A DNA stretch of 64,000 nucleotides from Balanoglossus misakiensis (Eukaryota > Animalia > Hemichordata): NCBI GenBank assembly GCA_040954595.2, contig CM082576.2, forward strand, positions 10,729,129 to 10,793,128, read 5' to 3'. Positions 28,805-53,200 of this stretch are shown piece by piece. How positions within the stretch are numbered: position 1 is the stretch's first letter; every line of letters starts with the position of its first letter. Made by a program: the position numbers and the translations under genes. The notes beneath the pieces were generated by a model that was not told the DNA's origin, made no database searches, and was given only the letters and a program-made list of their open reading frames with translations.

Positions 28805-30479
28805 GTTGTTGCTCTCAGTGTGGTGATGTCGCTGCGTCATGAATATAAATGAGCAGTGCGCCCAGAGAGTGCTGACGAAGTTTAATACTGCTGGCTGGAG
28901 CCGCCGCGATGACGCACGACTTCAATTAGATAAAACGACGCCCTCAATTTATAATAACCTTTTAAATATCGGAAACAAGCGAAAATACACATACAGAATA
29001 AACAGACACCCAGCTAAATACTTTATTTATATTTACCAATGGAGCAAATTATTTTCTGAGTGTAACAGTACATGCACGCGGTGAACATACATTTGTAAAT
29101 GCAAAATTAACAGTTTGACAACTGAAGACGGTGCCGATATGTTACCAGTACTACTCGTAAGATATTCTATGAAGTCATTACAAAACACTTTAGTATTCAA
29201 TCTCAATATTGGGATCATTGGGACAGGCTAAATGAAAACAACTAGATCCTAGTACCCTGTGAGACATTCTTCAAAATGTTTTATTAATTGACAATTGGTT
29301 TTCAACAGTCTATATAAACCAAAAGGAAAATCAGGATGCGGCGACAAACAGAAATTGCAAGTAAGCCTTATGAACGATAACTATTTATTCATCAAGTTTC
29401 CTCATCACGATTCATGGTTCATCCGGGGGCTATGCGGCTATCGAACCGTTCAAGCGCGTGAAGTCAACTTTCCCAAACCACTCGGCCTAGTCATTCATGG
29501 TCGAATATCCCAGATTTACTGAGATTCTAGAAGGAACTGTGGCGGAGTAGGCCTACACAGCAGTAGTTTTACCTACTTACTAGAATACGTATCATCTGCG
29601 CAGTAACGCACGAATTTTCTGTGCTCTGTGAACGTTTTTAATCACATAATACGTTACCAGAGTTTCAGCACAGGGAAAGCTCCTTTTGGAGTATTTGGGC
29701 AGTTGATATCATATGTTATCGTGCATAAACGGACATTAATCCGTTATATATGTTGTCAACATTTAGTCGATTGTCACTCTTCAAATAAAAGTAACTCGTC
29801 TCCGAAGTCGGAACCCGTGTAATAAAAGTTCGGTTCATAATAAATTTGTATCCAAATATCTTGCTGCTTGATTTGTTGTTTTTACCTGTAGATGTTGCCG
29901 CAAAATTAAACGTTTACAACTGACATGGTAGACTTATAGGAACAAATTTACGAAACCTATATTAGTATGTAAGCAATTTAGTGTTGCGTGTAACGTTGTC
30001 TGATTCTTATTAAATCCACTATTAACATACCAATATTCAAGGCTGAGAGCCTAAGTACACGTCATGTTATTATCCATGGTACGTGTTCATGGCCACGTCT
30101 GCGTCGCGCAATTTTGCACGTTGTCTCTTATTTTTAAGTTCAAGGGCATTGGATTTGTGCATTAGCAAACCAGAGAGAAAAACATGCTTGCATACCAATT
30201 AATAATAAGAAAAACATACATTGTAAGAAAGGAAATTGTTTTGATTCACGTTTTGAACAGGGGATGTTGTTGGTTGGGTGGGCGCTGTGTATAGGATTGC
30301 GTGACTAGAATCACATCGACGCTTTTACCATGCGGGCGTGGTACTACAAGAGCTGTATGACGTCACGGGACCTAGCTACTCCGTTGTCCATTATGTTGTT
30401 GATTTCGCCTAATTAGATCAATTGCCCGATATTCCTCGTTTTATGGAAATATAAATTTTGAAGTGACTTACTGACATTA

Positions 30480-31658
30480 GGGACCGTTCAGTTTTTACGG
30501 CCGGGGGGGGGCCGGCAAAATCCAGGGGGGGGTCACTTGAATTTTGAAGTCCAAAAGGGGGGGGTCATCTGGTTTTTTTAAACGTTTAGGGGGGGGGTCA
30601 CATACTTTTGCCACCAAACTTTTGCTTTTGAGTCCACAAAATTGCAGTTTCGCGCCCTTTATTTTACAAAATTTTCTAATGTGGGAGGGGGACACCCCCT
30701 CCCACACCCACCCCCTACATTCTTTGCAACATATCGATTTTGGCTGGTTTGACTATTCTACCAGGGCAGAGTGCTTGCCACCCCAAACCCACTGATGATA
30801 ATATTTAACAAAGTTAATACATAAAGGAGAATAAACGTTTAAAACCATTTTGCATAACTGATAGTTTTGTGCTGCATCTTCTATATGCTGGAAGTTTTAT
30901 AAATGATGTCATGACGAAGATGACGCCAAATCTTCTAACTTTGAGTGGAATGGCAAAAAATAAAATTGGTCCTCCCAAACATTGAGATGAATTTGCTTTT
31001 GAGTTCATAAAAATGCAACTTTGAGCTACATATTTTACAAAATTTTCTTATGTGGGAGGGGGACACCCCCTCCCACACCCACCCCCTACATTCTATGCAA
31101 CATATCATTTATCCGCTGGTTTGTCTAGTGTACCAGGGCAGACTTATTCCCACCCCACCCCTATGCTTACTTTGAGTGGAGTGGCAAAATCAAAATTCGT
31201 CCTGCCTAACATTGACTTTATTTGCTTTTGAGTTCATTAAAATGCAACTTTGAGCTACATATTTTACAAAATTTTCTTATGTGGGAGGGGGACACCCCCT
31301 CCCACGCCCACCCCCGCCACTTGTTTTACCAATTCTAGCAACTATTGTATTGACTTGTCATTTTTATTTGTTCATAGATTTCTTTATTGCAACAATATTA
31401 TTAAATAATTCAATTACTTTAAGAAATTTATAATTGAGGGGTGAGGAGCCCCATTCCCTTTATTGCATACAGTGTATACATAGGATCAGGATGGCGAATG
31501 TTTTCGGCGTGGGGGGGGGGGGGTCATCATATTTTTGGGTCTGTCAAAGGGGGGGTCATCATTTTTTTGGGCTGGGTGAAGGGGGGGTCGGCCTGATTTT
31601 GAGAACCGATGACACAAACTTGCCAGCCCCCCCCCTGCCGTAAAAACTGAACGGTCCC
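30480..31658 (+). mobile_element. Complete PIF/Harbinger-like MITE (about 1.18 kb, non-autonomous)
   Basis: TIRs GGGACCGTTCAGTTTTTACGGC ... GCCGTAAAAACTGAACGGTCCC, with TTA on both sides (30477-30479 and 31659-31661), the 3-bp TSD typical of PIF/Harbinger. Internal subrepeats and no transposase ORF. A second copy is at 1-134. Confidence 0.88.
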
Positions 31659-32584
31659 TTAGACAATAGTTTCATTTCTCACCCAACGATTCCGCCAGTA
31701 GACAGAATATACGGCATGTTTGCTACTCTTGCTGTCTATACCGACCTTTAACACCAAATGCATGAACTATTATTTCCATCTCTGATCCAAACAGGAGTCG
31801 TTCTTCGCATGAAATACATATGTAGGCGTATTGCCTTGTTGGGGCGTTCTGCTACTTGATCGTATTTTTACAGAATTTCAATATTCCGTCGTATAAAACG
31901 TTTTAGTTTACAATAATAGGGATGTGGAGACTGTGACCTGGCCGAGCCAAGCGGACAATCGAATTTCAGAAACGGACAATGGGATTTTCTGAATAAATTG
32001 TGGCAATCATCTGTTCAGTTCCCTTGTACAAAGCCTTACTCAGGTGTGCTCAAGTCGACAGACCGTTTTTGCGTGATTCTGGCTGTGACGTACTTAAAAG
32101 CTGTACGCCTATTCCAATATGGTCATTTTTCTTTCAAAGTCGACTTCACGTGCATCTTCTCCCCAGCCTCCAAAGGTTTTGCTCTCCAGAGACAGTGGTC
32201 GCGCCAACGACTGTGTCGGATCATGTTGTCGCCCTCTAACGTCAACAAGAAATAACCACGTATACGACTGATAGATATTTATAGTGTAGCTTAAATAAAG
32301 TTTTTAGAGTGTAATTAGTACAGATATAGCCAATGAATGTGTAAGGGTGCAGTAACTAAAGTGTATTTCAGCAATCAGCTGTGACAAATTTTCTGTATAG
32401 AACTGAATTACGCACTATTTTCATGGAAAGTATGTGCACATGTATATGATCATCCTATATAGCAGTAAATGCTGGCGGGGGAAAACAGCCTAGAAACCCG
32501 GATTAGTTAAATGTAAATATCACGGAAATGATTGTCAACTGGTATCCGAAGACGATAGTGTAATGTACAGTACTGTTTTAACGT

Positions 32585-33631
32585 TTACATCGGTTGCAGT
32601 GGTTTTATCGATGCTGGGTCTCTGGTTGCCACGTGTTCTGGTCGCGTGGAGGCGCTGCTGCAGTAGGGAATGTCGCGCACCCTGTTACCTATGCTGTTGT
32701 ACACCATAAATATATTGATACGATTCCACGGCGATGCGTTGGAGTGGGAGGCGTGCAACAAGTTGCAGTCGAACACGACCACATCCCCGGGGTCTCCAGT
32801 GCAATATTCAATCCCCAGATCGCGTGCCAAGTCCGTCAGAGTCTGTTCTTCGGGAACTCCGTAGTCTTGCTGATGCTTCAGGGACTTCTGCCAGAAGTTG
32901 TCAGGTGTTGCCCCAACACAAGAGACAAACGTCTTGTGGGATCCCGGCATAACCATCAGGGCACCGTTCGCCGGTCGGTTGCGGCTCAGGAACACGACGC
33001 ACGACAGGCACCGCATCCTCGGCATCCCGTCTTCCGCGTGCCAGGTCTCGAAGTCGCTGTGCCAGTAGAACCCAGTGCCGCGGAACGCCGACTGAAAGTT
33101 CATCCGGGACTGATGAATGTAGACGTCGTCTGCCAAAATTTGTTTGGCAATAGCAATCAGGCGAGCGTTACGGGTTATCTCACCAAGCGTCTTATGGATT
33201 TCAAAAACGGACCGTACTTTTTCCGACCCGGGCTCAGTGGCGTATTTTACTGCACTTGTCACAAATGCACCCTTTCCACTTGATTGTTCGGACTCTATTC
33301 GATCCTGTAGCTTCTCAGCTTCTTGGAGGAACTGTTTGATTTGATCCTCGGTGAAGACGTTTTTCACAGTCACATACCCACTCGTGTCATATGCGCTCAA
33401 TTCCGACGACGTGAGGGGACCCTGTGAATTGCCCTGTCCCCACAGCACGGGGTCGCGACGCGGCAGAAAGCGTGTCTTCTCTACTCTTGTCGGGTAGACA
33501 TCTTCTTCCATCGAGGTTCCAGAAAAATAAACTCGACATAATTGACCGCACCCTCTTCTTCGAACCAGCGAGGTCAAGATGTGTAAATTTTTCTGGCGAA
33601 GATTTGATAGCGCCAACAGTAGGTTTTTCAT
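32585..33631 (-). CDS. ectD: Ectoine hydroxylase-like Fe(II)/2-oxoglutarate dioxygenase; intronless CDS with an N-terminal presequence-like extension
   Basis: 348-aa ORF with the EctD signature F-x-WHSDFETWH-x-EDG-[ML]-P (FYWHSDFETWHAEDGMP, 33070-33020). It also has the N-terminal D-x-YPTR...R-x-DPV motif, VYIHQSR, GALMVMPGSH, FDCNLLHASHSN (distal His), the R of WNRINIF, VYNS, and C-terminal RPEHVATRD. Confidence 0.92.
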   Translation of the reverse strand: MKNLLLALSNLRQKNLHILTSLVRRRGCGQLCRVYFSGTSMEEDVYPTRVEKTRFLPRRDPVLWGQGNSQGPLTSSELSAYDTSGYVTVKNVFTEDQIKQFLQEAEKLQDRIESEQSSGKGAFVTSAVKYATEPGSEKVRSVFEIHKTLGEITRNARLIAIAKQILADDVYIHQSRMNFQSAFRGTGFYWHSDFETWHAEDGMPRMRCLSCVVFLSRNRPANGALMVMPGSHKTFVSCVGATPDNFWQKSLKHQQDYGVPEEQTLTDLARDLGIEYCTGDPGDVVVFDCNLLHASHSNASPWNRINIFMVYNSIGNRVRDIPYCSSASTRPEHVATRDPASIKPLQPM

Positions 33632-35544
33632 CGCTGTCTACGTCTGAAAATACAAATGTAGACAATTTGCTATGCGAAACTGGAAATGTATTCACGCAAT
33701 TAAAAACTCTGCTGATACCGGCCGCTCCTCCAAGGATTGGGACTAGACTGAAACTATTTTGGGGATAAAAAAGGAGTAAAAAACTTTAGCAGAGAACAGG
33801 GAATACGCAATGTATTTTTGCATTTTGTTTAATAAATTTGCACAATTGTGATTTTTAACCTCAAATACAACCATGTTGCTCGTGTGGAGCCGCTTTTGTA
33901 TTTACATGTTATACTTCGTCTGCAATTATCCGCAAATATTACAATAGTCTTTATTTCTGTGGAACAAACATATCGTATGATGATCCCCCCGACAAAAATA
34001 TTCTATAGGTAGATGCATGGAGCTACCACAGACATGTAACTATAGGTAAAATCGCCTATAGGACCTCGTTTATAGAAATTAATCCTACAAAAAGCGTTTC
34101 AATTCTCTAACATCAACTACCTACCTAGGTTGGCCTATCGAATGTTCAATAGGTGACGAAGACATATATGTTATTTTTGCTAGGGCGAAGTCGTGCAGAA
34201 AGTAGGTTATATAACAAAAACGCTAATAGTCCCGTATGTAAATTATTCTCAAGGTCACAAAGCTATCCGAAGTGCATTATCTTGTGCTATGTACAACCTC
34301 AAAATGTATGTTTCACGTTAGCCTTGAAGAGCAGTATCATTGTGACACATTTGGCGGCGACATTGCGAAGTTCCCCCGTTATATAGAGGTATGCGTATTA
34401 AAAGCGATGGCAACGTATGTTGATGAGTTGGTCGACCATTGAAGTCACTGACATGCCGCACATAATATTCCCTCGATATGGGTGGGAACTAGTCCCCGGA
34501 AACTTAGAACTGGCAGACTTACCCCTGGGAAAAGGTGGGCAGATTTAAAGTAACGACAAGAGTATGGGAAGAGCTCAGATGGAAACGGACGACTGACTGA
34601 AGTCTTGCCTGAAGAAACTGTGACAAGGTTACGATACGTCAGCAAAGTCAACCAACTAGGACAATGTACGTTTTATCATTCAATCAATGATTGAAGTACG
34701 TACATTCATGGTACGTGTATTGAGTAGCGCGGACAGCAGAAGCCTGGGAACTATAAAACGATCATTACTATTTTACTATAGTGAAGCTACATATGGACTT
34801 CACACATTAAGATAAATATGGACAGATGATCAATAAATTAAACTCTTGAAAAGTCACGAAATTAATCTTCAATTCTGTTCATTCACATTTTGTCCAGTCA
34901 TCCACGGTAAACATGCATTGGAGCCACGGAAAGAAATGAAATGATCTGTTACAGAAACACACTTCTGGCTCTCACCTACACCACGCTTGCCAATCTATCT
35001 GTACATATATGCTGAACTATACAAACAGACCCACATGATTTTATGTAAAAAGGTGCTTGTACCCTGACCCTCTGGGTCATGGATATCTCAAGAACAGCTT
35101 TATACAATATCTGGCTCTCTGAAACATGACTGTCACATTGCTACACATTTGGTGTGCAAGTACTGTTTCGGAGTGGTAGAAACTGAATTGATTTCGATTG
35201 GTATGGTGTGTTTACTCTTTTGAGTAAATGGTATACCAATTTGTCTGTGTGTTTGTCTAAGTGGGCGTGTGTATGTGTGTGTCTGGAGGACAGGTGTTTA
35301 TTTGAGAATGTTACAACTGATCAGATATTGCCGATTTGACTGGTATTTTTTGCGTATGTAATAAAGTTTTCCCACTAACTCTCCAGATGGCAGCACATTT
35401 AGGACGTGTGAGCCAGGCGGCCATTATCTCCTGAAGTCTCCATCGTTGCCTGATGCAGAACCCACGGATCGGCCTCCATGGCAAATGCCGATATATTATG
35501 CAACACACATACTTTGCGTGTGTGTGTGGGATTTGGCGACTTTC

Positions 35545-38500
35545 TCATTTCCTCTTCGTTTGCTGGGTCATCGGCAGCAGGTTGACTGTGGGATAGCCAT
35601 GCAACAACAACAGCAAACAAACCATGGCCAAGAATGGGAAAAGCAGCAGCCACTGAAGTTCATTCTGAATGCTCATATTGAAGCTGTCGAGGAAAACAAA
35701 AAACAGCAATCACACAAAATGATAATAGAAACAACAAAAGTATTGAACACACTGATTGATGACTTTGACTGTTTACATCAACACTGGCAAAACAATTGTC
35801 AAATGCTCAAAATAATTTTTACACAAACAAACAAAATTAATTGAAATATTAGCACTTCCCCTGAAATTAGAAATCACATGAGTTCCTGTGTGCATTGATA
35901 ATAACTGATGTAATTACCTCATGGGAAATGTGTCTTGAAAGAGCTGGCCATGCTGATTGGTCATGTGAATCTGTACAACCGATCTGATTGGTTGCTTGGG
36001 GCAGGGTATCGACCTTTGATAGTGCCCTGTGAGTGAGAAAGTCTCGTTGTACAGCAGTTCACTCCCGATCTTCACCTGTTGAAAACAAGCGGTGTTGCTG
36101 AATACTTGAAAAAAAACTTATAATAATTCATGCAGAGCTGGAAAATTGCAAAAAGTATGAATTTTTTGACTAAATTTTACCTTAATATTATAACTATTCC
36201 AAGGCTTCTTCGCAGAATGATCATCCAAGATGTCAAATTCTACAGGAAATGATGTGCCTGTCACATGCTTCTGAGATTTGCTGACATCAGAAACCACAAC
36301 ACCAACCTGACAAAATATATTGTTGTGAGTAGACCAAAGTAGTATTTGGATTAAAAAATATAAATCGTGGCTATTTATTATTTAAAATTTTGCAGTATGT
36401 TAATATTTTAACAATATAATTTGTATTCCATAAGATATGTGATAAAACCTTTACAGCCCTGATATAGGTTGTGCGGATCTTTGTAGTATGGAAATTGCCC
36501 CCCCCCCCCCCCCCCCCCCAGTCCATAAAACCTGTGTAACTGTAAGGGTCATAAAGGATTACCATACAATATTGCAATGAGCAGAGTCAAGTTTAAGGAA
36601 GATGACCTCTATCACAGCCAACACAGCAATTAACACTTTACCTTTGAATCCCAGAAAGTGAATCCGTTGAAACTGTGTGTTTCCGCCGGCCACTCGTGCA
36701 CAACCCCGCTTCCGGGTTGCGCGTCATCCGTGGAAGTATGCAGGCACATCAGCGTTCCGTCGGACGTGGCCACCAGCAGCTCCAACCCCGGAGAGGCCTC
36801 CACCAGATCAGCAGCCAACACCTGCACCAAGGTCTGCTCGCTCAGCTGGATCACATCGGAGCATTTCCCGTCGCCAGACAACACCTGCAGATTTCCGTCC
36901 TGGGTTGGGATCACCTGGCCAACAGATAATATCAATTGAACCTCAGTACCAACACATGGTGTACTTCATGTAGATTTTGATACTTCAAGTACAGTTATCT
37001 TCTTCTTCTTAAACTAGCCACCCTCATCAGGTTGAAGATTTTGCTATTTGTGCGCAACTGAATTGCAGATACGTGTATGTGGTAGATAGATACAAAAAGT
37101 GGCCTCTGGTGTTTTCTCCATAAGGCTACGTATTCGTTGTTGTGGAAATCAAATCAGAATTCCGGAGAAAACTACAGCATTGACACTGCATGAAAACTGA
37201 CACTGAATAGTACTCACGATATCAAGGTGGTCCTTGTCATGTTTCAGCCGGGTAATTAAGACATTCTTGGGTAATAATTTACTCATAACTCTCTTGGGCC
37301 AACCCAGAAGGACCTCACCAGTGTCACCACTCAAAGCCCATATATTCCTTCATTTGGAATTAATGACAGATGATATAAACAGAAACAAAACTCAGTAATA
37401 AGCAAAGAGCACACAAAAATGAACACCAGTAATGTTATCAGTTAGAAAAAGCAAAAGATAAAATCATTAACTAACCCATTGTTGGTTGCTATGACAACAT
37501 CAAGGATGCCATCTGCATTTATGTCTGCCACCCTGGACCCAGCCGAGGAAGACCCTGACAACGGCATATCCCACAAATTCTCACCAGCAGCAGTGACACA
37601 CATGACGTTGACATTGGTATCTGTGAAAATGATCTCAAGTTGACCATCTTTGTTGAGATCTTCCACCGTAACCTGCCAACAGAGAGAACAGTTTGAGGTA
37701 TTTTCAAAAAATTAAAAGATACAGGTATTTAAATGTCTCTTTACAGTCCAGGGTTGGAAGATAAACCAAGTATGCGGTTATGGGTGCCTCTGTCATTTGA
37801 TTCTGTACACAGGGAAGATTTACCAGAAGCACTCTCTCAGAACAATCGGGTATCAAAACAATCTGTCACATGTCACACTCTTGCTTCAGGGCTTAAAGAG
37901 ACGATCGCTACACTACACTGCACAGTACAGTACAGCTAACTGACCTGGCCATGAATCGGTCCAACCAGTTTGGGGAATCCGTTTCTCATGATGCCATCAG
38001 AGTTCAACACATAGAGGTGACCAGAGGATGTACCCAGCAGGATTTCCAGTGGTCCACTATTGCTATCCAGATCAACCACAGTTGGCGTGAACAGTGCATA
38101 GGCAGGGAATTCCGAACTCCCCTGTAATTCAAATCAGATCATAGTTATGACTCTTACATATTATGCAGTATTTGGAATGCTGATCATAAAACATGCAGCA
38201 CTGGATCTTAAATTAAATTTTAATAGGACTATGCAGGTAATGAAGAAATTTATTATTACTGCGGAAAAATATATGAAAAAGTAAATACTGCCCATGAATT
38301 TTCTTATTGAGACATGACACTACACATTTTTTTAGATAAATTGCTTTGGTGAGTTACTATAAAGAAGTGTAAAATTTCCCTAGGGCCACTGGAATTAACG
38401 TGCACTTTTTGTCACCCTCAAACATTCCAAATGTTTGTTGCATTAAACTGCACAGTACATTCCTAATTATAAGTAAAGTCTATCATTGACCGTTCTCACA

Positions 38501-40717
38501 AACCTTGGACAAGTCCAGAGGTATCTGCTTCACAATGCTCTTCGAGGTGAGGTTAAAAACCACAATGCTGCTTGCTACGTAGTTGTCCAGCTCGTCTTGA
38601 GGTAAGTGAAGCTTCTGTAAGTTTTCTGGTTTGCTAGTTGTTTTTGAAAATGCAAAATGGGGAGAGACATCATGAAAGGTAGAGAGTATGTATGGTTGGT
38701 ATTTGTCATAATGCATTAACAACAGCAAGAAATCTCCATTATTTTTACCTGTAAAACTCTGCATCAAAATAATAGCTGACAGCCAAAATCAGCTCGTCTG
38801 CTTGTCCGTCGTTATTCAAATCTGCAAGAACTGGAGTTGCCAGGATGTGGGCATCGATGCTGACATACCGCCCACTCATGATCAACCCTGACTCAGAATC
38901 GCCATGGTAACGAGACCAGAGGGGATCTTCTTGCGGGTTGGTCAGGCCATCAGGTCGCGGGTGCTGGAAAGGGAGAAGCAGGGTTGAACTGGGTTTTTCA
39001 ATTAAAGTCGAGGAACTCTCACAATCAGTGTTTCTCCAACATTTCATGACTATGTACCTACCATTAGAACTACATGAACGTACAGGGTAATGGGGTGTTT
39101 GGTTAAACAATCCATTGCCATTGGGAAAGGGGGGGGGGGGGTTAGAAACCACAGTAGATAACTTACATCAGACACATAGTGTTTCAAGATAACATCCTTG
39201 ATATTTCTGTGATTGTAGGATATTTCTTTCTTATACCAGTACCTTTCCACAGCCAGGTTTCGTACCTGCAAAAAGGAAGAGTGCACAAAGTTCTTTTTCT
39301 TTAGTTTTGAAAGTCTCTACGGTGAGATTTGTCAGTGAAACATCTTTATGTGTTCTTGGTGCCAGTTTGTCAGTGGGAAGGTATGTGACTTATGGTGAGT
39401 CGCTTGTCATTGGTGTAAAATTCCCATCTGTTTGCATACCTGTATGCCTCCAACCCCTGGTGTGGTTGTGTGTGTGTACATTTGTGGGCAAGCATATATG
39501 GAAATATGAAGTTAACTTGTGAATTGTACAATAGTGGTAGCCCTTCTTGTATGTGGCCTTTTGTGTAACTTAGAGGAGGTAGACAGGACAAGTGCATATA
39601 GAGAGACAGCCACCTATCTCTACTACTCTCCGCAGAATACTTACTTTGAGGGTTTCTCCGTACATCAGTGTTCCATGGCTTTCAAAGAAGACAATCTCTC
39701 CATTGGTTGTACACAGACAGATATCCAGCTTCCCGTCTTTGTTGTAATCGTACTGTGAATAATAATATGGACAATGAGTATTACTTGGAAATGTGATAAA
39801 AAGTAAGGACACATGTAACCTGGGTTAAAATAATTTTACTACAGTCAAATTAACCATATTATGCATCACAACTCCTTCTACACTCAATGAACATCTTTGC
39901 AGGTACCTTTTCTTGTAAGCGTATTTCTCACTCACCTGTATAGGGCTTGCATGGAAGGAACTGTCCTGTAGACTGAATGGCCAGTTACTGCCAGGGATGG
40001 GCTGACCGGTTTTTCCTTCTACCACTGTGATTTCTTCTGTGAATGTGGCTGCTATGATATCAGGGAAGCCGTCTGCATTAACGTCAGCTATGAGCGGAGT
40101 ACTGGCGAATGCACTCGTACCGACCTCTTTGGTCCAAAGTGTGTCAATGTCATAGTGACATTCTGGACTGTGGCTGGTGAAATAAAAATTTCAGTCACAA
40201 AAAGTTAATTAGCATAAACAAAAAATGTTATCTACCATAGGGCCTAAATAAAGCCCTAGGCCGGGTGTGGCATGGGTGAGTAGCCAGCAGTGCAAACCCC
40301 ACATCCCCATTTTAGACCGACTTGCTGAAAAGCCCACGCACCCAACAGCATATGCAAAGGGTGGCACACATACAAACATGGGAAGTACCCCCCCCCCCCC
40401 CACCCGAAACATTACTGATAGGAGCACAGTGGAAGCTCTCGGTTGGCTGCGATACCATAGCTCGAGCCTGTTGTGTCTGGTTGCCGTCCAATCCCAACAA
40501 ACGCCAGGCACCCGAACTACAGTAAATATTGCAGGACCGACTGTACACTGGGGCCATAGGGTCAGCTCTATTGTTCCAACACTCCTGCATCTCAGGGAGC
40601 GGACTGCTGCGCTCCGACATTATCTTACCTGTCTAACTTCGGGTTGCATGGAGGAATGAATACACAAGCGACAAAAGAGTACAAAGTAATGTACACCGGA
40701 CAATGCTGGAACAGCAT
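35545..40717 (-). CDS. DEX1-like (DEFECTIVE IN EXINE FORMATION 1) FG-GAP repeat single-pass membrane protein, about 13 exons
   Basis: Exon 1 (40717-40629) encodes a signal-peptide-like [23 protein letters not shown]. Later exons encode [73 protein letters not shown] and [12 protein letters not shown] (Ca-binding FG-GAP repeats). The last exon (35683-35545) encodes the TM helix [19 protein letters not shown] and a short tail. The layout follows recalled plant DEX1. Internal exon limits are approximate. Confidence 0.8.
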
Positions 40718-41236: not shown

Positions 41237-44200
41237 TTACGAAATTGTAGTGTCGTGAAGTCGGCTGGGTAGCGGTAGCGAGAATTTACTGATTTCCCCG
41301 TCGACCGCCGAAGCGATGTGCCAGTCGAGATCGTCCTCCGTGGATAGCTGCCAGAATTCGTCCTGCACCACCGAATGGTTCGGATCGAACCAGACGATCT
41401 CACTGTGCTCGGCCCACTGGTGTTCCAACGTATTCGACATCTTCTCGCTGAGGGCGAGGCTCTTCTCCAGGCATTTCTGACACTTGGCCCTGTCGCGTGA
41501 CAGAATGTGGTAGAAAGCCAACAGGTGGAAGTAACGCGGCAGGAAGACCTGGAACTTCTTACACAGCCTACGGAGCAAGTCAAGAGCCTGGAGTAGGAGG
41601 AGCAAAGGAAGAAGAAGAAGAAGAAGTAAATTGATTGTTTGGCCATTTTTTAGACTAGACGTCGCTGGCCATTTTGTCAATTTACAATGTAATTACGCAC
41701 GTCCTGAAAAGGACGAAACTTTTTAGGACACTTTTTAGTCTTTTTCGATTGTAACTGGAAATTTTTGAATTATCTCACATTTCGACATAGATGATAACTT
41801 TGGAAATGAAATATCGAGTCTGTTTTCATTCGAAACATACTAGTAAGCAAAATGACGTACAAGGGAAATTTTTTAGACTTGGCATACGAGTACCAGATAA
41901 ACCGGTATAACAGTAACAGATACTTCACACACAGTAAAATGCAACCCTTGTCTTGCCATAGTTTTACCTCCCATGCTTGCTTTTTCATCTTGGTGATGTC
42001 TGCGAGAAGGCGACAAGCGTTGCTGTAGGCTATCAGCTCGGCCTCCACCAACTTGACGTGGGCGTTGACGGCCATGTACGTTTCAAAGGTATCTGGCGTC
42101 AGGGTCAGCGACGAGCTAAAGAATTGTTCCGCTTGGTCCCAGTCGTTCTTCCGAGAATACCTGGGAGGGAGGAGGGGGGAGACGTTTAAAAGAGAGGAGG
42201 GTGCGAGGTAACAAGACGTGTTTTCGTCGTATGGTTTAGTTAAAAAAAAACAATAAAAACTAACTAACTATCGAAATAACGACCACGATACAAAAGGTGT
42301 AGATAATAAACTGGATTTCGAAACTCACCACAATGCTAACGAGGCGTTCATGTAGAATCGTGGAATCGGATTCATGACATGCCATGAATCAGCGGCTGCT
42401 TTGGTGACAAACTCAACGCATTTGTTGTGAGATTCCAGAGCAAACCCTGCATACCAAATAGAAACACATGGATCGACGTTCATGGTGAAAAAAATCGAAA
42501 ACTGAGAATAAAAACATGAAAGTTGAATAGTACAGTTGGAAAAAAACTTGAACTATCTCAGCGCTCCCTTCCGATTTCCTATACTTTGCCAACCCGCAAA
42601 AACGGTGTTGTTTTTGATAAAATCTGACTGTAACCCAAGTGCATTACCTAGTTCAAGTAGAAGATCGAGGCAACAGCAGAAATACCATCCACGTCCTTCG
42701 ATGTCCTCCTCTTCATCGCTGATGTAATCTAACTGTTCCAAGACTTCGACGCACGGAACGGACCTACGAAATGAAAAATTAACACCATATTATGGTAGTA
42801 CGCCGAATGGTTACGATATCAGGACAGTATAGACAAAAAATCCTGCCTACCTGCAGGCCCTATACAGAGGGTAATGTTAGAGGAAACACACGGTTTTTTT
42901 TTTGTTATTTTGGCCCTATACCCCTGCATGGTCATATACCACCCAGCCGTTAAGATTAGAGCTAGGGGTAGTAAGTGTCCGGTGGGCATTATACCAAGGA
43001 CATACCCATCCAAGAACAGTTATTACTACAATCACACAAAACTTCCGCAACCAAATATGGTCATTTCTTTCAAATAAAACAAAGGCGCTATCCTTTTTTG
43101 CCCATCGTATTGTCACACAGCCCCACAAATTCTAAACAAAAAATTATTTAAATCTACTACAAAAAAGTCGTGTGGTTTACCTGTTGCCCAACATTAGAGC
43201 TGCAGATAATGTAGGGAGAACGCTGAGTTTCAGACTGTTGTCATGGAGTTGCTCGGCAACCTTCAAAGATTGGAAACCTGAAGGGAACGAAATAAAGTTC
43301 ACAACAGACATTACTTATCAGTGGTACGAAATTCCTACCACGGAGACAAACAAACGAGAAATACTTTACTCGTCATGGTAGTATAAGTTGAAATGTACCT
43401 GAATCGATGGCCTTTTGTATTCGTCCGGAGGATAAGCGAACTCCCATGACAACGGAATACAGATGTCCGACTGTGACGAGATCGTCTGGGCTGAATCCTG
43501 TCACTTCCACGCACCTGGTATTTAAACAAAAGGTTCATATGATGACATATGTATACATATAAATGTAAAACGATATCTTTTGGCAGAAAAGTGAAAGCAA
43601 TATACTAGTATGCATCGGCCACGGCTGAAAAAATGCCACGCCACTGAGGTTTTCCATCAAATCAGCACTTGAGCAATCCTTGCGAAGAGCTATGTGTGTG
43701 ACGACACAACGCACGGCCGGCGTCATATGTATTTAGTTCTACTAACTCCTTCCGATACTTACCTAGCTAATGCCATTTCTTCGTAAACTTGGACCTTCTT
43801 GTGCCAACCGTGAATTTGACAGGATTCTACCACCGCCATGTATGCAACCAACAACTGTAAGAAAAGAGGCGGGAGAAAATCTAACTTTATGGTGTAATAT
43901 ATTCCAGAAATATAGCGCACGCATTTGTTCACTTTGTCAGAGTTCGATCACATGGCAGGTTATGCTTTACACCGTCACATTGTAGGACAGTCACTGACTG
44001 GAAGTCACAAATGAAGTTGATATGGTGTTACTTACGTCATGCAGATCGTCGTCTGCTTTCTCGGCCCGGTTGACTTGCTGCAATGCCGCCAGCCATGCCT
44101 TCATGTCCTTGTGAGTCTCGTGGTACACGTGCCATACATGCGACAAACAGCGGGCTTGTTCTACGAATAAGTTACAATCGATACTCCTGTAGGGTAGAAG

Positions 44201-47200
44201 TAAATTAAATAGGCTTGTTAAATGAATTTTACAGAAATTAATAGCATTCTGCGTTATAATATTATGAATTTGTGACAGATGGCATTCAAATGCGTCTCTG
44301 GAAGTGAAAAGGCTTGATCGAGCTAAAATGACAGACATTCACGGTTTACTTACGACGCATGTCCAACATATTTGCCAGGATTCTTCAGGTGAAGATACTG
44401 GGTCACGCTTTCTATGACGAGGCGGTAGAAAAAGCCGGGTCGAGTTGTTGGCTGCTTGTTCCCGAGTGACTTCAGCGCATCAAGCAGATGGGGCATGGCC
44501 TCCTCTAAACGACCCATGTGCAACAATGCCTGCGAAAAGATGATGGACAAAATATGTGTCACCAAATCGTTGTGTCGTATGCTAACACGTTTAAGGTTTC
44601 TAACCATTTGCGACTTTATGTCTACAGGATTATCAACAGCATGGCGCCTTTACCTGACCGATGAGGCTGTCCACCCGAGCTTTCTCTTCTAAGTCAATCT
44701 CGATTCGATCATCCGGGTCATCAATCAGGGGTTTCTTGCCGGCGTCCAGGTCCTTCAACATCTGATGGGCTTCCATTAGGTACGAAACGCCCTGTAGGTA
44801 TAGAACACAGAATCATGCCGTGTGACAAGATCGACAACTTGCTGTGTTTGAATCAAGCATATTGCTTCATAATTATCCCATTATCATGGAATGAAGTCCA
44901 CACACAGAACCTAGGCGACATTCCCACTTCTAAAATCGTGGTTCAATAACTGGTTCAATAACTTGTGGCGTGCAGTTTGGCACGTTTTGAGGAATGTATA
45001 GTATGGCATTTGAGTACTCGGGACTTTGCAGAAGTCGGCCTAAGGTCAGGCTTTGGACATTATTGTACAATCTACGGTCACTATGTGGAGTGACCGTGTA
45101 TAATCATTATTACCCTTACCGTCATGTTATTATGTGTGGCGATGGCTGCGCCCCCGGCTTCCGTCAAGAAATGAATGGTGCGGTTCGTATTGCTGGCCGC
45201 CCTCCAGTGCCTCACCAACTGAGGATAGACCGATGCTAACACTTGAGGGCACTCGCAGTCTCGTAAGTCTATTTCTCGGAATGTTACCTCCTCATCCAAA
45301 ACATCGGCGCCCACTTCACCCATGAGTTTCTCACTGAAACAAAGACGCATAAGATTAAGAGAGTTAGAGGCTTTGGACTTTAAACAAGAATATTGAGCTG
45401 CATTACACGAATATTGACAAAAATAACGGGGATTAAACCATTCCGGAAACTACTTGGTAGAGTTTATGTTGTTTAAATGGGACAAAGTTCGGGGTAAACG
45501 ACTCAACCGGCAAAAGACCAATTTTGTTCAAATGGAGGAAACAGTCTCTCACCTCAATCGACTGACCATAGAGCCTCGTCTTCGGCTTTGTGCCCTGGCT
45601 TGATATTCCATCATCTCTTCGTCTCCAACTTTGCTTTTACGTTGAAAGACTTTCTTGATTCCGTCAAAAATGGTTCCCCGGCGCGTCGGCGCTTCCGCTA
45701 TTTCGTCTGCCAAAGAAAGAAAACATCACATTTATCCGTGTTTGCATTACAATACGCCCCTATTTCCAAGACAATTATGGCAATGAACTTGGAGTGTAGG
45801 CCCTTTGATATGCGAAAGCTGCCATTTTGTATTTCTGCAGCAATTTTAGTCATTTTTTGGTCAAATAACCTTCTCAGAAACTGTTCTTTGGTTTGAAAAG
45901 TTCAATTTCGAGTATAAAATATGAAACTGCTGCGCAGTGGTTTTTCCAGTAACTACTGAAGAAAACAAATGTCATGACTCGCGCACCTAAACTTTCGTCG
46001 AAACTGTCTATTGTTCTCCGTCTCTCCTTCCGAAAAGTGCGTTCCGCCGGTCGCTTTCTTGCCGCCATCGACTGCGCCCGTCGGGATCCGCCTCCGCTAT
46101 TTTCGCTGCCGCCGCCGAAACTCTTGCGAGGCTCGTTGCCGGCGGCGGGCAGGGCGTGCGACACGGACTGGTAGTGGTGTATGAACTCGCCACCTCCGCA
46201 CGATTTGCATTTGTGCGCCTGGGACTCCAGAAAGAGGGCGGCCATCTCGTGCAGCTTCCTCCGCTGGTCGCTTAGGAACAGCGTGTAGGCAACCTCCTGC
46301 ACCAGAGAAGTCTTGAAGCGCAACATCCTGCAGTTGGAGATGTTGGTGCGGACCTGGACAGCGGCGTTCTCCGTGTCTCGGGGACAGTGGCACTCCACTT
46401 GGGCCGCCAGGCGCTGGTGGCCATGGTGACTGACGCTGCTGTGACGCGGACCAAAACCCGACTGATGGTGCGGGGCGCCGGTGTGTTTGGCGGCGCACTC
46501 AAACAGCCGCTGTTGCATCAGGGAGTGGATGCCCATCCGGATCTTCCTGCTGTTGAAGTTTGGCACGATTTTCTCTAGGAGCGAACGAGTGAACGAGATG
46601 CCGAGCACGGCTGCGCACTTCAGGACCATCTGGTCACCTGACTTGAGGCGATCTATCTTGGCCAATATCATTCCTGAAAAAGGGTATTTGAAATAATAAG
46701 AGAAATGGAACTGTTTTTGGACAAACCGAAAAATAGTTGGAATTAAGGTTAATATGCACAATTTTCCCGTAATCGATAAATCCATTAATTCATGTCCGTT
46801 TACGATTGGGAAGGGGGCAGTTGTTATAGCATTACTTTCCTAAGCTACACTGGTTTAATATTTTTGGCCACTTTACAATAATCACAAACTAACTAATGGT
46901 ATAAGATATGTTACATGTGCCTTTGGCACACAAGCTACACCTTGACAACAAGCTAGTGGTTTTTTTTTACCTTTCATTGAATCCGGAACCGGTATTTCAT
47001 TTAACTTCACCCCGGGGGCGACTACACAGAATTTCTTTTCGATGCTGTCTTCGTCAAAGTGGTCTTCTTCCTCCGCCCTCTCGGCGTCATTCTCTGACGA
47101 CGGTGCGCCGTTCTCTCCGATCGGCATCACCGGAATTGGAACCTGCGAAACAGGACGTGGACACGTTGAAAATGTAGTCTGGTACGCCCTGGCCCATCAG

Positions 47201-50200
47201 TTCTGCACAACGAATTTCAACGTGATAGGACTGGACTGGCGAGGGAGATTCAAACAACAAGTGTTACAGTATAGTAGTTTTACCTGACGATCACTGGTAA
47301 CACTACCTCGCCTGCTGTTTGGCACGACCGTCGACACATCGCTGGAGACGCTGGCCCGGCGCGCCCTCGTCACAGTACGGCTCTCGGGCGCCACGTGATT
47401 GCTGACCATCTGGACCGTATTATCCAAATCATTTTGTGCCACTATTTGTATCTTTTGGGAGAAGAACATGTCGCGTAGCAGTTGCTCGCACCACGACGCC
47501 ACTCCGTGGCTACGTTCTCTCAAAATTCTGTAAAAACAACATAGCGGTTGTAATTATCGACACAAGCTCTCTTCTGGGAAATCATGAATAAGATTGGTCG
47601 AGTGCAATGTGTACAGACAACCCTCTGCTTCTCACCTTCCGCAGTTTCAATGATAAACGTGTTTTATGCGTTTGTGTATATTGGCTTATTATACCCTAGC
47701 CTATAAGTTATCTGCATGCATGATGTCAAAAAATCTTTCATTTCAAATTCACAAATTTCTGTCAGTAAAAACTAGTGTATTTTGTGTATCGTCTTTGGCA
47801 GGTTTACTCACTTCAAAAGTTCCTCAGGAATACTGACCACCTCCAGTATCTGACAGGCCAGTGGCGCAAGTTGTTCCTGCGGCAAACCCGACAACTTCAG
47901 GTGCAGAGTACTGCTGCTCTGAAGGACTTTGGCCGCGGAGGGACACGAAGGTTTACTGGGAGGAAACGGCCTCATTGCCAGCAGGCATACGGCGGAAGAA
48001 TCCTCCGACAGATCGGTGATGAATTCCCACGAATCCTTGTCAATGAAGTGGGCATCGTCCACGGCGAAGATGACGCATTTTTCGATCGTGAACTACGGTG
48101 GTGTAACGAAAAAAAAACGTTATAAGCTGTTGCTTGCTATACACACATACTATATGGAGGAAATATTTTCCTTTTTCAAATCATACACACAAGACGTCCG
48201 AAAAGTTTACTGACTTGAGTTTCAAAAAACAAACTTGAAGGCGTCCAACTTGAAGGACGCACCCCCCTCAATTTTTACGAACTCACCTGGTGCACTATAG
48301 CTACCATTAATCGATGCAGAGCTTCTGCGCGGTCAGCGCTCGACATCTGTGTTATTTTCGGTCCGCTTGGAAACTATGGCGGGCAAAACAAAAGTAACAG
48401 TGATATAACTATTATAAGTAAAAGAAGCCAGAATTTCAGCTAATATGGAATTTTAGTATAATATATAAAAAATTGTATTATAAATGCTCAAGTTAAATTG
48501 GCGCCCGATTTGTGGTTACCTTTAAACTCAGGAGATCGTTGAGAAGGGAAAGCTCTTCGCGGAGATTTTCCTCCACGATGTGATCCAACACGGCGTGCTC
48601 ACGTTCAACGTGATTGGCACAGTTGTCCATTTCAAGCAGCAGTTCGATCAGGGTGGTGACGGCGTGATATGGCGTACCGGCGTCGTTCAGTGTCAGGTTA
48701 CATGACACCACCCTGCAATGGATACACCAGAAAATAGATTGAAACACCAAAAGCAAGTGCATCATTTGTCACGTGAGATACTAATATGTGGGCAGACAGA
48801 TAGCTATGATGGGTCCACATCACTCCCACTTGCATTTTCTGACGCCCTTCTGTCATTTATGGCTGATTTTTGTTTTCGCGATATTTGTATACCATTTAGT
48901 CGCTAACAGATAGACAAACATACAGGCAGAAGCTACAGGGCAAAGGTAAGAAGCACACTCTTAACAAAACTGGAAACTAAATTAGATGCAATTTTTTTTG
49001 GCACTAACAGACAGATCCCCCATCAGACAAACAAAAAGATGTTCCTAAAAAGCACACAGACAGATGCGACTACATATATTCGCTTACCGTATTCCCTCCC
49101 CCATTGCCTCTTTGATGCAAGCCTCCAACATCCGGGTCTTACCAATGCCGGAGTCACCTTCGAAGACTATGACGCGTCGATGTTCGCCTTTCTCCCTGTG
49201 CTCCGAAATCAAGTGTAATTCATCCAGAAACGCTTGCAGCTCCGAGTCTCTCCCTGAAGAATGAAATCCATTGCGCATGAGTACAGAGTGCTTGTTCATG
49301 ACAATTGCACAGAAATGTTGTGAGAGTAAAACAATTAACCTAGGCCTATATCATGTATTATCGTTCTTGTGGGTCACGTTTCCACCCTTACAAGCAAAGC
49401 ATGAGTGTAAACGGTACTGGCTGTATTGTGTATAGGAATTTACACATTATTCAAGAAAGACAACACCCATGTACCTACCTAATAACGGATATTCGTTTTC
49501 GGGTGCGACTATTCCATCTTTTGAGGAAGTCCTACGGTCAGGCACCAGGAAAAAAGAACACAACATTTTGACAAAAACACGGATGGAGAACGCTATCGAC
49601 ATATAAAAGTTACCAGGTCTTCCCAAATCCATATTTATAACTCCAAGGGGAGAAACTCTCCAGTTTCTTAACAAGTAGACACTAAAACCATTGTTTTTCT
49701 TGTTGTGCCGCAAGATTCAAGCACAGTAGAAAAGAATATCAAGATAACACTGCGGGGAAAAAAGAATTTACTGTTGCCATGATACCGTTCATCCATCGCC
49801 ATCTCGATTACCTACTTTAATACTTCCACGTATTCGTGTATGATGCCCGGGTTCTTCACTCCCTTCATTTCGCGATATGGGAGTTCGTGGAATAGATACC
49901 GGGGTAGCTTGGAATGGTGGTACGTCTCCGGGTCACACGACAGTTTCCCAGGGTAGTGCATCATCAGGCGGGCCGCCATGTTGACTTTGTTGCCAATGAC
50001 TATGAGTGAGCGCAAGAACGAAATGTATCACTTCACATGAAACTCACGAGCTATAATCCGAGTAGAACCCGCCCCAAACCAAACCAAAATCCATGCGCCG
50101 TGACGTTCATTTATTTGAGAAGCCGTTGAAAAACAAAGAAAACCAAAGAACGCACATACCCTGGGATATTTAAATTTCATTTTCTTTCGAATTACGTCAT

Positions 50201-53200
50201 CTTATTATCTGACAATGGATTAGTTTGCGGCCGACCGTCTTGTGGTCATAAGCAGGTGTATGATAGGTTTGTATGTAAATATCGCAAAGCTTCGATTTAG
50301 CCTTCAACTCACCTGTGTACTCGTGTCGATATGTGTGACCCACGACGCCGCAGAAAGTCTTACCCGTGGTGACTCCGATAGACACTTGCCTTGGGATAAA
50401 AGAAGGCAAGACGAAATGAATTTTCAAATAATACACATGGTATGTACTTCTGCCCGGATCACTCATAATAAGTTGTTTCAAGCATTGCAAATAAACATAC
50501 TATTTAAGGCCATTACGAGGGCCAAAATTAACCCACGTCATAATTCAATGCCGAAAATTAATCAGTCAATGGTTTGATGTAACTTACAGAATTGACGGAG
50601 TGGACTTCAATTTGTCGTGCATCTTAAAGGAACACTGCAGAGCATGCGCACAGTCGTCTTCGTGTTTGTCACCGGGAAGTCCGAAAATTGCTAAGAACGT
50701 ACAACCTTTGTCAAACATGAATATTTTATTGAGGCACCCTATTGAAAGACAGGGACAGAAAAGAAAACGGTCAGTACCTGGCGGACTGGGCAGAGCCTCG
50801 GAAAAATTCAAATTGTATAACTATGGGCAAATCTCAATTTGTAACAAATGTAATACTATGTAAGGAGTACTTTACCATGAAACCGCTTCAGTTCGGTGTG
50901 GATGATGCCAAACGCGGTCTGGAGAATATCGGCCTCGTTACTCTTGGAAACCTCGGCCAAGGTCATGTTCACAAAGATAATCGTCACCTGTCTCATTTCA
51001 GACAGGTATTCTAGAGGCAAGCCATCGTCAATCTAAAAAACAACGAAGGCACAGATAAAAACAAACGAGTGTAGATACAGAAAGTTGGACTGCACGTCAT
51101 GTCCACAACGACGCGAAAGTAAAATGGGTATATTTGGAGCGATGGAAATATTTGCATTAAGTCAAAAAAAGAGAATAGAAACAAATAATCAGGTTTAGAA
51201 TCATTCTTTTACCTTTTGCAAGACAGTTCTCATCACGTATAAACGCAATCTCTTTTCTTCGTCGAAAGTTGGCGTCGTAAAAACCTCCAATCGTTCTGTG
51301 TGAACAGAAACAACACAACTCTTGTAATAATTATTTTAGAAAAAATACATGAACATGAGAAAATTTATATGAATTTAACATTATGATGAAAACATGCTCC
51401 GTTTAAAGACACGTGAAAGATGGCATTATTATCACATCATACAATACATGTATTTGAATAATAAAACCTACTGGTTAGTTGCTCGATCTCCTCCTCTTCC
51501 TCATCTTCTTCGGGCAAGGATTCCTCCTTCAGCGTACTCTGTGTGTTGATGATCGCCCCGACGTCGATCTGCCCTGGAACTACTGTTGACAACCTGCGAA
51601 CTGCATTGGAGGAAAAAAAGGAGTCGATTGAAAGCACAACCAATAGCTTGAAGTGTCGCCAGTCAAGCTTTCACTCGGTCGACTGGTTTTTGCGAAATGC
51701 AATCTCCTTAAAATTTGTTGGTACGCCAGGCTGTAATCGAGTTCTGTCGGACCTCATTGGCGAGGCGAAGACTGAACAGTAAAAACTGGACTGAAAAAAT
51801 GAGATCTTTTAAATTTATCAATATTAGTGGAAAGCAACTCATCATTTTGACGAAAGCGAACCAGTTTTAGCTCAATGCCTCTCTAGTCAACTTGTACGGT
51901 GTACAAAAAAAATCACTTGCCAAACGACTGCAATCCTTGCTTTTGACTTTTGTTATCTCGGTTCAAATCAGTGCTGTGTTTCTGCTGTCGTCTGCGTCCT
52001 TGGTTTGATGACGTCGGTTGCGTTTCGCCGTCAATTCTGTGTGACAACACCTGCCAAGAAGATTGAGAGAGAGAAAAAAGATCAACATCAATAAAAAAGT
52101 AACGGTGGTTTTCTATCCCTGCTCCCAGGTATATACGGGTGTCTCAAAACACATTGTGCGACAAGAAAGTGCTAGTCGCACTTTGAGGGAAATGCTATCT
52201 GCGACCACTAGCACTTTGATTCTGCGACCACTAGCACTTTGATTCTGCGACCACTAGCACTTTGATTCTGCGACCACTAGCACTTTGATTCTGCGACCAC
52301 TGGTACTTGCATTGTGCGCTGTGATCATTTGCGACCAACAAGCTTGAATAAAAACCAGTTTCAAAAAGCACAGTCGGCACAAAGGGGTTTTGAAAGTATC
52401 GCGACATTCAACTTTCTTTCAAGATGATAACTTGATATGTTGTACTCGTGTCATGTACAAAATACACGATCCACGTAATTTCCGTTTGGTTAAATACTGA
52501 CCTTTCATTTCTACTAGATCATATCCAAGTCTGATTTTACACCGACTTTAATAAGAACTCTGGTTTGTCGATTTTTGTAGCTGAGTAAAACTAGCTATTA
52601 AACGAGCGCGAAATGCGCATTTGCGATGCGATGACAACACAATCGCCATTTTTGAATGACCTGACCTTTGACATCGTAGAATATGGTCAAGGTCGCGCTG
52701 CACTCATCAGATGAATCGCTCGATGAATCTGACTACTTGCTTCCGTGATCGGTATACTTGCCTTTAGCGGTTTTATGTCTAAATAAAGGTAATATTTTTA
52801 TGTTGAAAAACGACTGTGTGTATTTCTGTAGCATGAGTGCAGTTAAGTGTTGTGCGCGCCCACATGAACCCGTGACCTTTGCGTGTTAAAAATAGGACTT
52901 CAAGATGCCGATACGATCGAGTACAGTACTTACGTTAATAAACTTTTTCCTTTATTCTGTCTATATAAATAATGTTTTATCAACGTTTTCTCATTGCATT
53001 GATGTTTTAGTCTGAGAGCAATACGCAGCTAGTTTTTTCATGTACAGTTGTGGTTGCATGTTTGTACAAACAGTACGGAAAGGCGACGCAACGGCCGGGG
53101 CATTTGCTTTGTTAACTCGATCAATGACTGCCGCACTTATCAACGTGACGAACTTGGGATCGGCCGGGAAAGCATCGGGCATTGACGTTGCCTTGTCGAA

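Follow-up and report, generated by a model that had tools for sequence, protein, structure and literature searches.

The genome of the acorn worm Balanoglossus misakiensis contains a gene whose product resembles EctD, the ectoine hydroxylase of bacteria, preceded by an N-terminal extension rich in basic residues. A preliminary description of this locus raised the question of whether the extension directs the enzyme to mitochondria, whether such targeting was acquired after transfer of the gene, and whether two in-frame start codons yield both mitochondrial and cytosolic isoforms. We addressed these questions in a window of 64,000 nucleotides (assembly GCA_040954595.2, contig CM082576.2, positions 10,729,129 to 10,793,128), to which all coordinates below refer. 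The reading that we prefer, and that we hold to be reasonably probable, is that the gene encodes a likely active EctD with a predicted cleavable mitochondrial presequence, and that this leader comes from an old eukaryotic EctD clade and was not newly added here.

A single open reading frame with a basic leader

The EctD-like gene is a single unbroken open reading frame (ORF) of 348 codons on the minus strand (33631 to 32585). As described previously, the 40-residue leader (33631 to 33512) contains seven Lys or Arg and no Asp or Glu. It begins at a first ATG (33631; ATG1) and precedes a second in-frame ATG (33511; ATG2), with an in-frame TAG just upstream of ATG1. We placed this TAG three codons before ATG1 (33640 to 33638) and counted five Arg, two Lys, nine Leu, and four Ser in the leader; its net charge is +7. 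That description overlooked an out-of-frame ATG at 33539 and the potential of the upstream TAG to act as a splice acceptor. The features of the locus are as follows:

33512 to 33631, minus strand: leader, likely mitochondrial presequence (40 codons, net charge +7, no acidic residue, predicted helix at residues 2 to 23)
33629 to 33631, minus strand: ATG1, likely the principal start codon, with G at -3 and A at +4
33509 to 33511, minus strand: ATG2, the codon of Met41, at a position that is the N terminus in many bacterial EctDs (T at -3, G at +4)
33638 to 33640, minus strand: in-frame stop codon (TAG) 5' of ATG1 that could double as a splice acceptor (score of 5.4, within the highest 5.6% of AGs)
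33387 to 33539, minus strand: 50-codon ORF in a different frame, which begins at an out-of-frame ATG with A at -3 and overlaps ATG2
33506 to 33535, minus strand: candidate processing region R33-V-Y-F-S-G-T-S-M-E (Arg at -2 or -3 from the cut)
32585 to 33511, minus strand: EctD-like catalytic core (intronless, 308 codons and a stop codon; matches to TIGR02408, PhyH, and PDB 4mhr/4q5o)
33020 to 33070, minus strand: EctD 17-residue signature, intact (residues 188 to 204)
33644 to 34522, minus strand: predicted 5' untranslated intron, with its donor at 34522 and its acceptor at 33680, 33644, or 33638

The make-up of the leader was confirmed to be more than chance. Across both strands of the whole window, 471 40-mers begin with ATG and contain no stop; only six of them, the leader counted, lack Asp and Glu and have at least seven Lys or Arg. 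When all 126,790 codon positions were considered, an open upstream ATG leader of 25 to 80 residues with no acidic residue and at least 15% Lys or Arg preceded 0.14% of them.

The catalytic core is likely an ectoine hydroxylase

Profile searches matched the core to the PhyH family and to the EctD family TIGR02408. The match to TIGR02408 covered 276 of 277 positions (320.4 bits, E = 9e-96), and the next family scored 26.9 bits; this score is below the curated cutoff of 336.5 bits, which belongs to an equivalog model meant for prokaryotic annotation. Solved EctD structures were matched with E values of 2e-80 (4mhr/4q5o) and 3e-74 (3emr). Residues 188 to 204 match the signature F-x-W-H-S-D-F-E-T-W-H-x-E-D-G-M/L-P, which has been described as the mark of bona fide EctD (PMC5924519). 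Based on published lists of ligand residues (PMC2871039, PMC6890836), the Fe(II) triad His-x-Asp...His is present (H191, D193, and H293), as are the 2-oxoglutarate ligands F188, S295, and R304 (F143, S250, and R259 in Virgibacillus salexigens). Five of the six product-binding residues are identical (Q127, H144, T149, W150, and R280 correspond to Q174, H191, T196, W197, and R330), and the sixth is a conservative change (L284 to V334).

The closest relatives of the protein are eukaryotic. Its best matches came from Saccoglossus (51% identity), protists, Branchiostoma, Balamuthia, and Glandiceps, all of which ranked above named bacteria; an Atlas search returned only EctD clusters dominated by bacteria. 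In a tree of 45 sequences, the protein fell into a 19-member clade that was separated from 26 outgroup EctDs, named or presumed bacterial, with support of 100/100, and a mixture-model tree of 39 sequences recovered the clade with an SH-aLRT of 98. Named members include Saccoglossus, Glandiceps, Branchiostoma, Amoebozoa (Balamuthia and Sexangularia), Discoba (Pharyngomonas and Ploeotia), Ancoracysta, and a dinoflagellate, while many other members are only presumed to be eukaryotic. From a larger set of 345 proteins, 324 passed filters for length and coverage, 59 inside the clade and 265 outside.

One substitution distinguishes the clade. At position 180, 47 of the 59 members, including the window protein, have Gln, versus Lys in 244 of the 265 other proteins. 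We take this lysine (K133 in Sphingopyxis alaskensis) to bind 2-oxoglutarate. It may be the single residue whose change in dinoflagellates was noted by Harding et al. (PMC4987115).

The leader could be real and mitochondrial while the enzyme acts on some other small cyclic compound instead of ectoine. Such a shift would fit the TIGR02408 score under the equivalog cutoff, the substitution at position 180 across the clade, and the altered signatures of the hemichordate paralogues P0224, P0225, and P0007. Furthermore, EctD accepts homoectoine (PMC6890836), and a partial literature search found no paper reporting ectoine in hemichordates or amphioxus. However, the window copy has retained the full signature and, apart from one conservative change, the product-binding residues, and EctC-like genes have been reported from Saccoglossus and Branchiostoma (PMC4987115). 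We therefore regard a different substrate as rather unlikely; judged from its sequence, the core is likely an active ectoine hydroxylase.

The leader as a predicted mitochondrial presequence

The leader has the general properties of a presequence: it is N-terminal, net positive, free of acidic residues, and rich in Leu, Ser, and Arg. An AlphaFold2 model (mean pLDDT, 80) placed it outside a domain that is folded from about residue 42, with a helix at residues 2 to 23 predicted at low pLDDT and values below 50 across residues 19 to 41. The hydrophobic moment is only moderate (0.40), within the span of homologue leaders (0.32 to 0.63). Presequences are commonly processed at motifs with Arg at -2 or -3 from the cut. 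By eye, R33-V-Y-F-S matches this pattern, and homologue leaders contain similar motifs.

Comparable leaders are found on most of the complete clade members, as the preliminary description had suggested should be checked. The start of the core could be located in 46 of the 59 clade proteins, 23 of which have a complete leader of 25 to 160 residues. We called a leader presequence-like if its first 30 residues contained at least four Lys or Arg and at most one Asp or Glu, a threshold chosen after the leaders had been seen. By this measure, 16/23 leaders in the clade (15/22 without the query) were presequence-like versus 0/13 outside, although members are related and the counts are not independent; the other seven clade leaders fell below the threshold. 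All three complete hemichordate homologues (P0002, P0007, and P0224) passed and have no Met between the start and the core, as did the amphioxus proteins P0123 and P0376. Because there is no Met near the core from which translation could begin, the leaders of these five homologues must be translated. Among four further amphioxus models, two passed, one narrowly failed, and one (P0374) begins at the core. BLASTP against the Glandiceps protein reached into the leader, with nine identities over residues 11 to 40, a weak match that lends weak support to common descent of the leaders; the alignment with Saccoglossus did not extend into it.

Together, the composition, the predicted N-terminal helix, the Arg cleavage-like motif, and the similar leaders of homologues argue for the proposed presequence, which stands as a prediction: the leader is likely mitochondrial. 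In the amphioxus leaders P0009, P0123, P0373, P0375, and P0376, the unit TMAT recurs. A repetitive motif in the DNA may underlie this recurrence, and the true start of these proteins may consequently be uncertain.

The second ATG is probably not a regular start

It had been proposed that alternative initiation could yield a mitochondrial form from ATG1 and a cytosolic form from ATG2; we considered whether each might be made in useful quantity. Met41 does lie where many bacterial EctDs start, its codon is followed by G at +4, and the amphioxus model P0374 begins at this core Met position. In addition, a Met within six residues of the core occurs in 5 of the 16 presequence-like clade leaders, compared with an expectation of 7 to 13% (binomial P = 0.005 to 0.047). 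However, this enrichment dropped to 3/13 (P = 0.07 to 0.23) without the query and with two amphioxus sequences merged.

Regular use of both codons would be expected where the first ATG is weak, no other ATG competes, and close homologues keep the second Met. Instead, ATG1 has a purine at -3 (G) and ATG2 a pyrimidine (T), and the two are separated by the out-of-frame ATG at 33539, which itself has A at -3. Under a scanning model, this intervening ATG would capture many of the ribosomes that leak past ATG1, and the sole AG between it and ATG2 is not a usable splice acceptor (score of -2.0). The second Met is found in none of the three complete hemichordate homologues, amphioxus is mixed, and the close pair P0006 and P0202 differ at the site (Met versus Val). 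These observations speak against a cytosolic isoform made by alternative initiation. Dual initiation is possible but not favored, and we consider it improbable; ATG2 is probably not a regularly used start.

Structure of the 5' end

We scored splice sites with a matrix trained on 24 of the 28 introns placed in the window, four doubtful ones having been dropped. A donor at 34522 (score 6.3, top 3.4% of 8003 GTs) can be paired with acceptors at 33680, 33644, or 33638 (scores of 5.7, 3.8, and 5.4; top 5 to 10% of 7171 AGs), and a candidate exon of 86 bases upstream of this donor contains no ATG. By eye, 33644 had been taken for a strong acceptor, which we rejected since its score is low within the range of the 24 introns (1.7 to 12.2). 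These scores make an intron in the 5' untranslated region plausible. If 33638 were the acceptor, the upstream TAG would be spliced out and the start would not be fixed by it. The 5' structure is itself not fixed, because two weaker acceptors lie within the leader, at 33593 (score 2.9) and 33558 (score 4.5).

These acceptors bear on whether the leader is coding at all. It could be untranslated or intronic sequence that is open by chance, with a cytosolic protein beginning at Met41. Open upstream ATG frames of at least 40 codons are common, occurring at 6% of window positions, and the leader resembles noncoding sequence in having an intron-like GC content (0.425, versus 0.54 in the core and 0.39 upstream) and no codon-position bias. 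Yet the composition of the leader is shared by only the few 40-mers counted above, and homologues that lack the second Met require their leaders. Initiation at Met41 alone would also need two upstream ATGs to be skipped. We consider this explanation very unlikely and retain the reading of the leader as a translated, probable presequence.

A probably old leader in a eukaryotic clade

The enzyme had been suggested to be retargeted to mitochondria after transfer into this animal. This idea is not supported, since the leader type spans animals and several protist supergroups within the clade. Comparison of the leaders suggests that the presequence is probably shared and old, with no fresh retargeting in this animal. 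Monophyly of animals within the clade was neither recovered nor rejected (p-AU = 0.26), and no supported grouping joined the window protein to other hemichordate copies. Branching within the clade lacks resolution, so old inheritance and spread between eukaryotes are indistinguishable. Hemichordate copies are of two types, signature intact (the window copy and P0002) and signature altered (P0224, P0225, and P0007; support of 95). The two types likely explain an earlier report of a degenerate EctD in Saccoglossus: most functional residues were substituted in the animal EctDs that Harding et al. (2016) saw (PMC4987115).

A broader scenario can be put forward only tentatively, as we lean against it at present. 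Acorn worms and amphioxus might retain a mitochondrial EctD subfamily that is ancient, eukaryote-wide, and recognizable by the Lys133-to-Gln change, and that would use dietary ectoine to make 5-hydroxyectoine in the matrix; the gene would descend from early eukaryotes, with many losses along the way and no bacterial transfer onto the deuterostome stem. If true, this would be the first animal use of the "microbial" chemical chaperone 5-hydroxyectoine. Regardless of that scenario, the clade result casts doubt on a direct bacteria-to-deuterostome origin.

Recent transfer from bacteria into this lineage with gain of a new presequence, or bacterial contamination, might be read into the intronless coding region, its GC content above that of the flanks, Met41 at the bacterial start position, and the lack of supported grouping with other hemichordate copies, but is highly improbable given the position of the protein inside the eukaryotic clade and apart from all 26 outgroup EctDs, its top match in Saccoglossus, animal monophyly that is not rejected, and the intron-rich animal genes on both sides, which also make contamination unlikely.

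Within the clade, P0250, P0251, P0253, P0258, P0238, P0280, and P0290 are long fusions that carry other domains ahead of EctD. A related N-terminal domain is common to P0250, P0253, and P0258; by eye, we take it to resemble an Asp/Glu racemase-like fold. In a long-branched subgroup (P0260, P0305, P0302, P0338, P0248, and P0218), some members have hydrophobic, signal-peptide-like N termini, not basic leaders, hinting at secreted EctD-like proteins.

Genomic neighborhood

Flanking the EctD gene are animal genes with many introns, of which one, on the upstream side, is DEX1-like with FG-GAP repeats and the other resembles adenylate cyclase 10. The DEX1-like gene (Pfam Beta-sand_DEX1 and FG-GAP; about 35545 to 40600, minus strand) is directly upstream of the EctD gene. 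Its CpG observed/expected ratio is 0.42, whereas the EctD and adenylate cyclase genes have ratios of about 1.0, suggesting patchy gene-body methylation. The soluble adenylate cyclase (ADCY10-like) gene extends over about 41255 to 55263 on the minus strand in about 28 matching segments. Ptychodera flava is its closest named relative, and one exon shares 80% identity with P. flava, 65% with Glandiceps, and 52% with Saccoglossus. These identities point to a ptychoderid acorn worm as the likely host. No P. flava EctD appeared among the homologue matches, although proteins of this species were in the collection; missing annotation, gene loss, or exclusion by the candidate filter could account for this. 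A noncoding element of about 1.2 kb (30479 to 31659) has 40-nt terminal inverted repeats (95%), TA-containing flanking bases, and internal repeats of 115 nt and 32 nt, and looks like a MITE.

Predicted role of the enzyme

Under our preferred reading, translation would begin at ATG1, and the basic helix would be imported through TOM/TIM23, with cleavage of the presequence near Arg33. Once in the matrix, the Fe(II) enzyme would convert ectoine, O2, and 2-oxoglutarate to 5-hydroxyectoine, succinate, and CO2. The ectoine would likely come from food or microbes, and Met41 would likely be incidental or a minor start at most.

The locus had also been taken to imply an organellar hydroxyectoine pathway. 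Only the last step, EctD, is indicated, and no ectABC genes were seen in the window: tblastn found no ectC-like sequence within it, and no match to the EctA, EctB, or EctC families was found in 150 of the 211 stop-to-stop window frames of at least 75 residues or in nine further ORFs. To our knowledge, animals lack an aspartate-semialdehyde route. For Saccoglossus and Branchiostoma, the available part of Harding et al. (2016) reports genes resembling ectC and ectD; it names no animal ectA or ectB (PMC4987115). On these two grounds, the substrate is likely dietary or microbial, and "pathway" here likely means one or two steps.

Comparison with known systems

EctDs of animals and presequences on protist EctDs are already published, and the leader is of a known kind. 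The presence of EctD in Branchiostoma floridae and Saccoglossus kowalevskii is in print (PMC4987115, repeated in PMC5924519 and PMC5796728), and a Saccoglossus database record bears the name "ectoine hydroxylase-like protein 165." A partial literature search found no paper on the presequence, localization, or activity of an animal EctD. The word "ectoine" was not found in the main text and two supplements of the hemichordate genome paper (PMC4729200), whose Supplementary Information PDF may list the gene, or in the text and three supplements of a diplonemid mitochondrial proteome paper (PMC12699882); in PMC11535335, it occurs only in a reference.

Like the bacterial EctDs of S. alaskensis (4mhr/4q5o) and V. 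salexigens (3emr) and the TIGR02408 family, the window protein has the signature, the Fe triad, and the 2-oxoglutarate and product ligands. In contrast to them, it has a 40-residue basic leader, Gln for Lys at position 180, and a short insertion in a helical region, and its gene lies in a eukaryotic context without an ect operon. The EctD of Halocafeteria seosinensis, which was not identified among the homologues that we compared, is likewise eukaryotic, with an intact signature and a predicted presequence, as predicted for all the Ect enzymes (EctABCD) of that protist (PMC4987115). Features reported for Halocafeteria but not seen for the window gene are ectABC-ask, intron-containing genes, and a 227-fold induction by salt (PMC4987115).

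The nearest counterparts are the "ectoine dioxygenase-like" proteins of hemichordates and amphioxus (XP_077869181, APU50791, XP_077984040, XP_066289350, and XP_035695350), which belong to the same clade, have Arg-rich, acid-poor leaders, and share 43 to 51% identity with the window protein where reported. Unlike the window protein, the hemichordate homologues lack the second Met. The signature is altered in APU50791 and the Glandiceps protein but kept in the window copy and in Saccoglossus XP_077869181. With intact residues and a likely presequence, in contrast to the substituted animal EctDs of Harding et al., the window copy is, like XP_077869181, a good candidate for testing hydroxyectoine synthesis in animals and its location in the cell.
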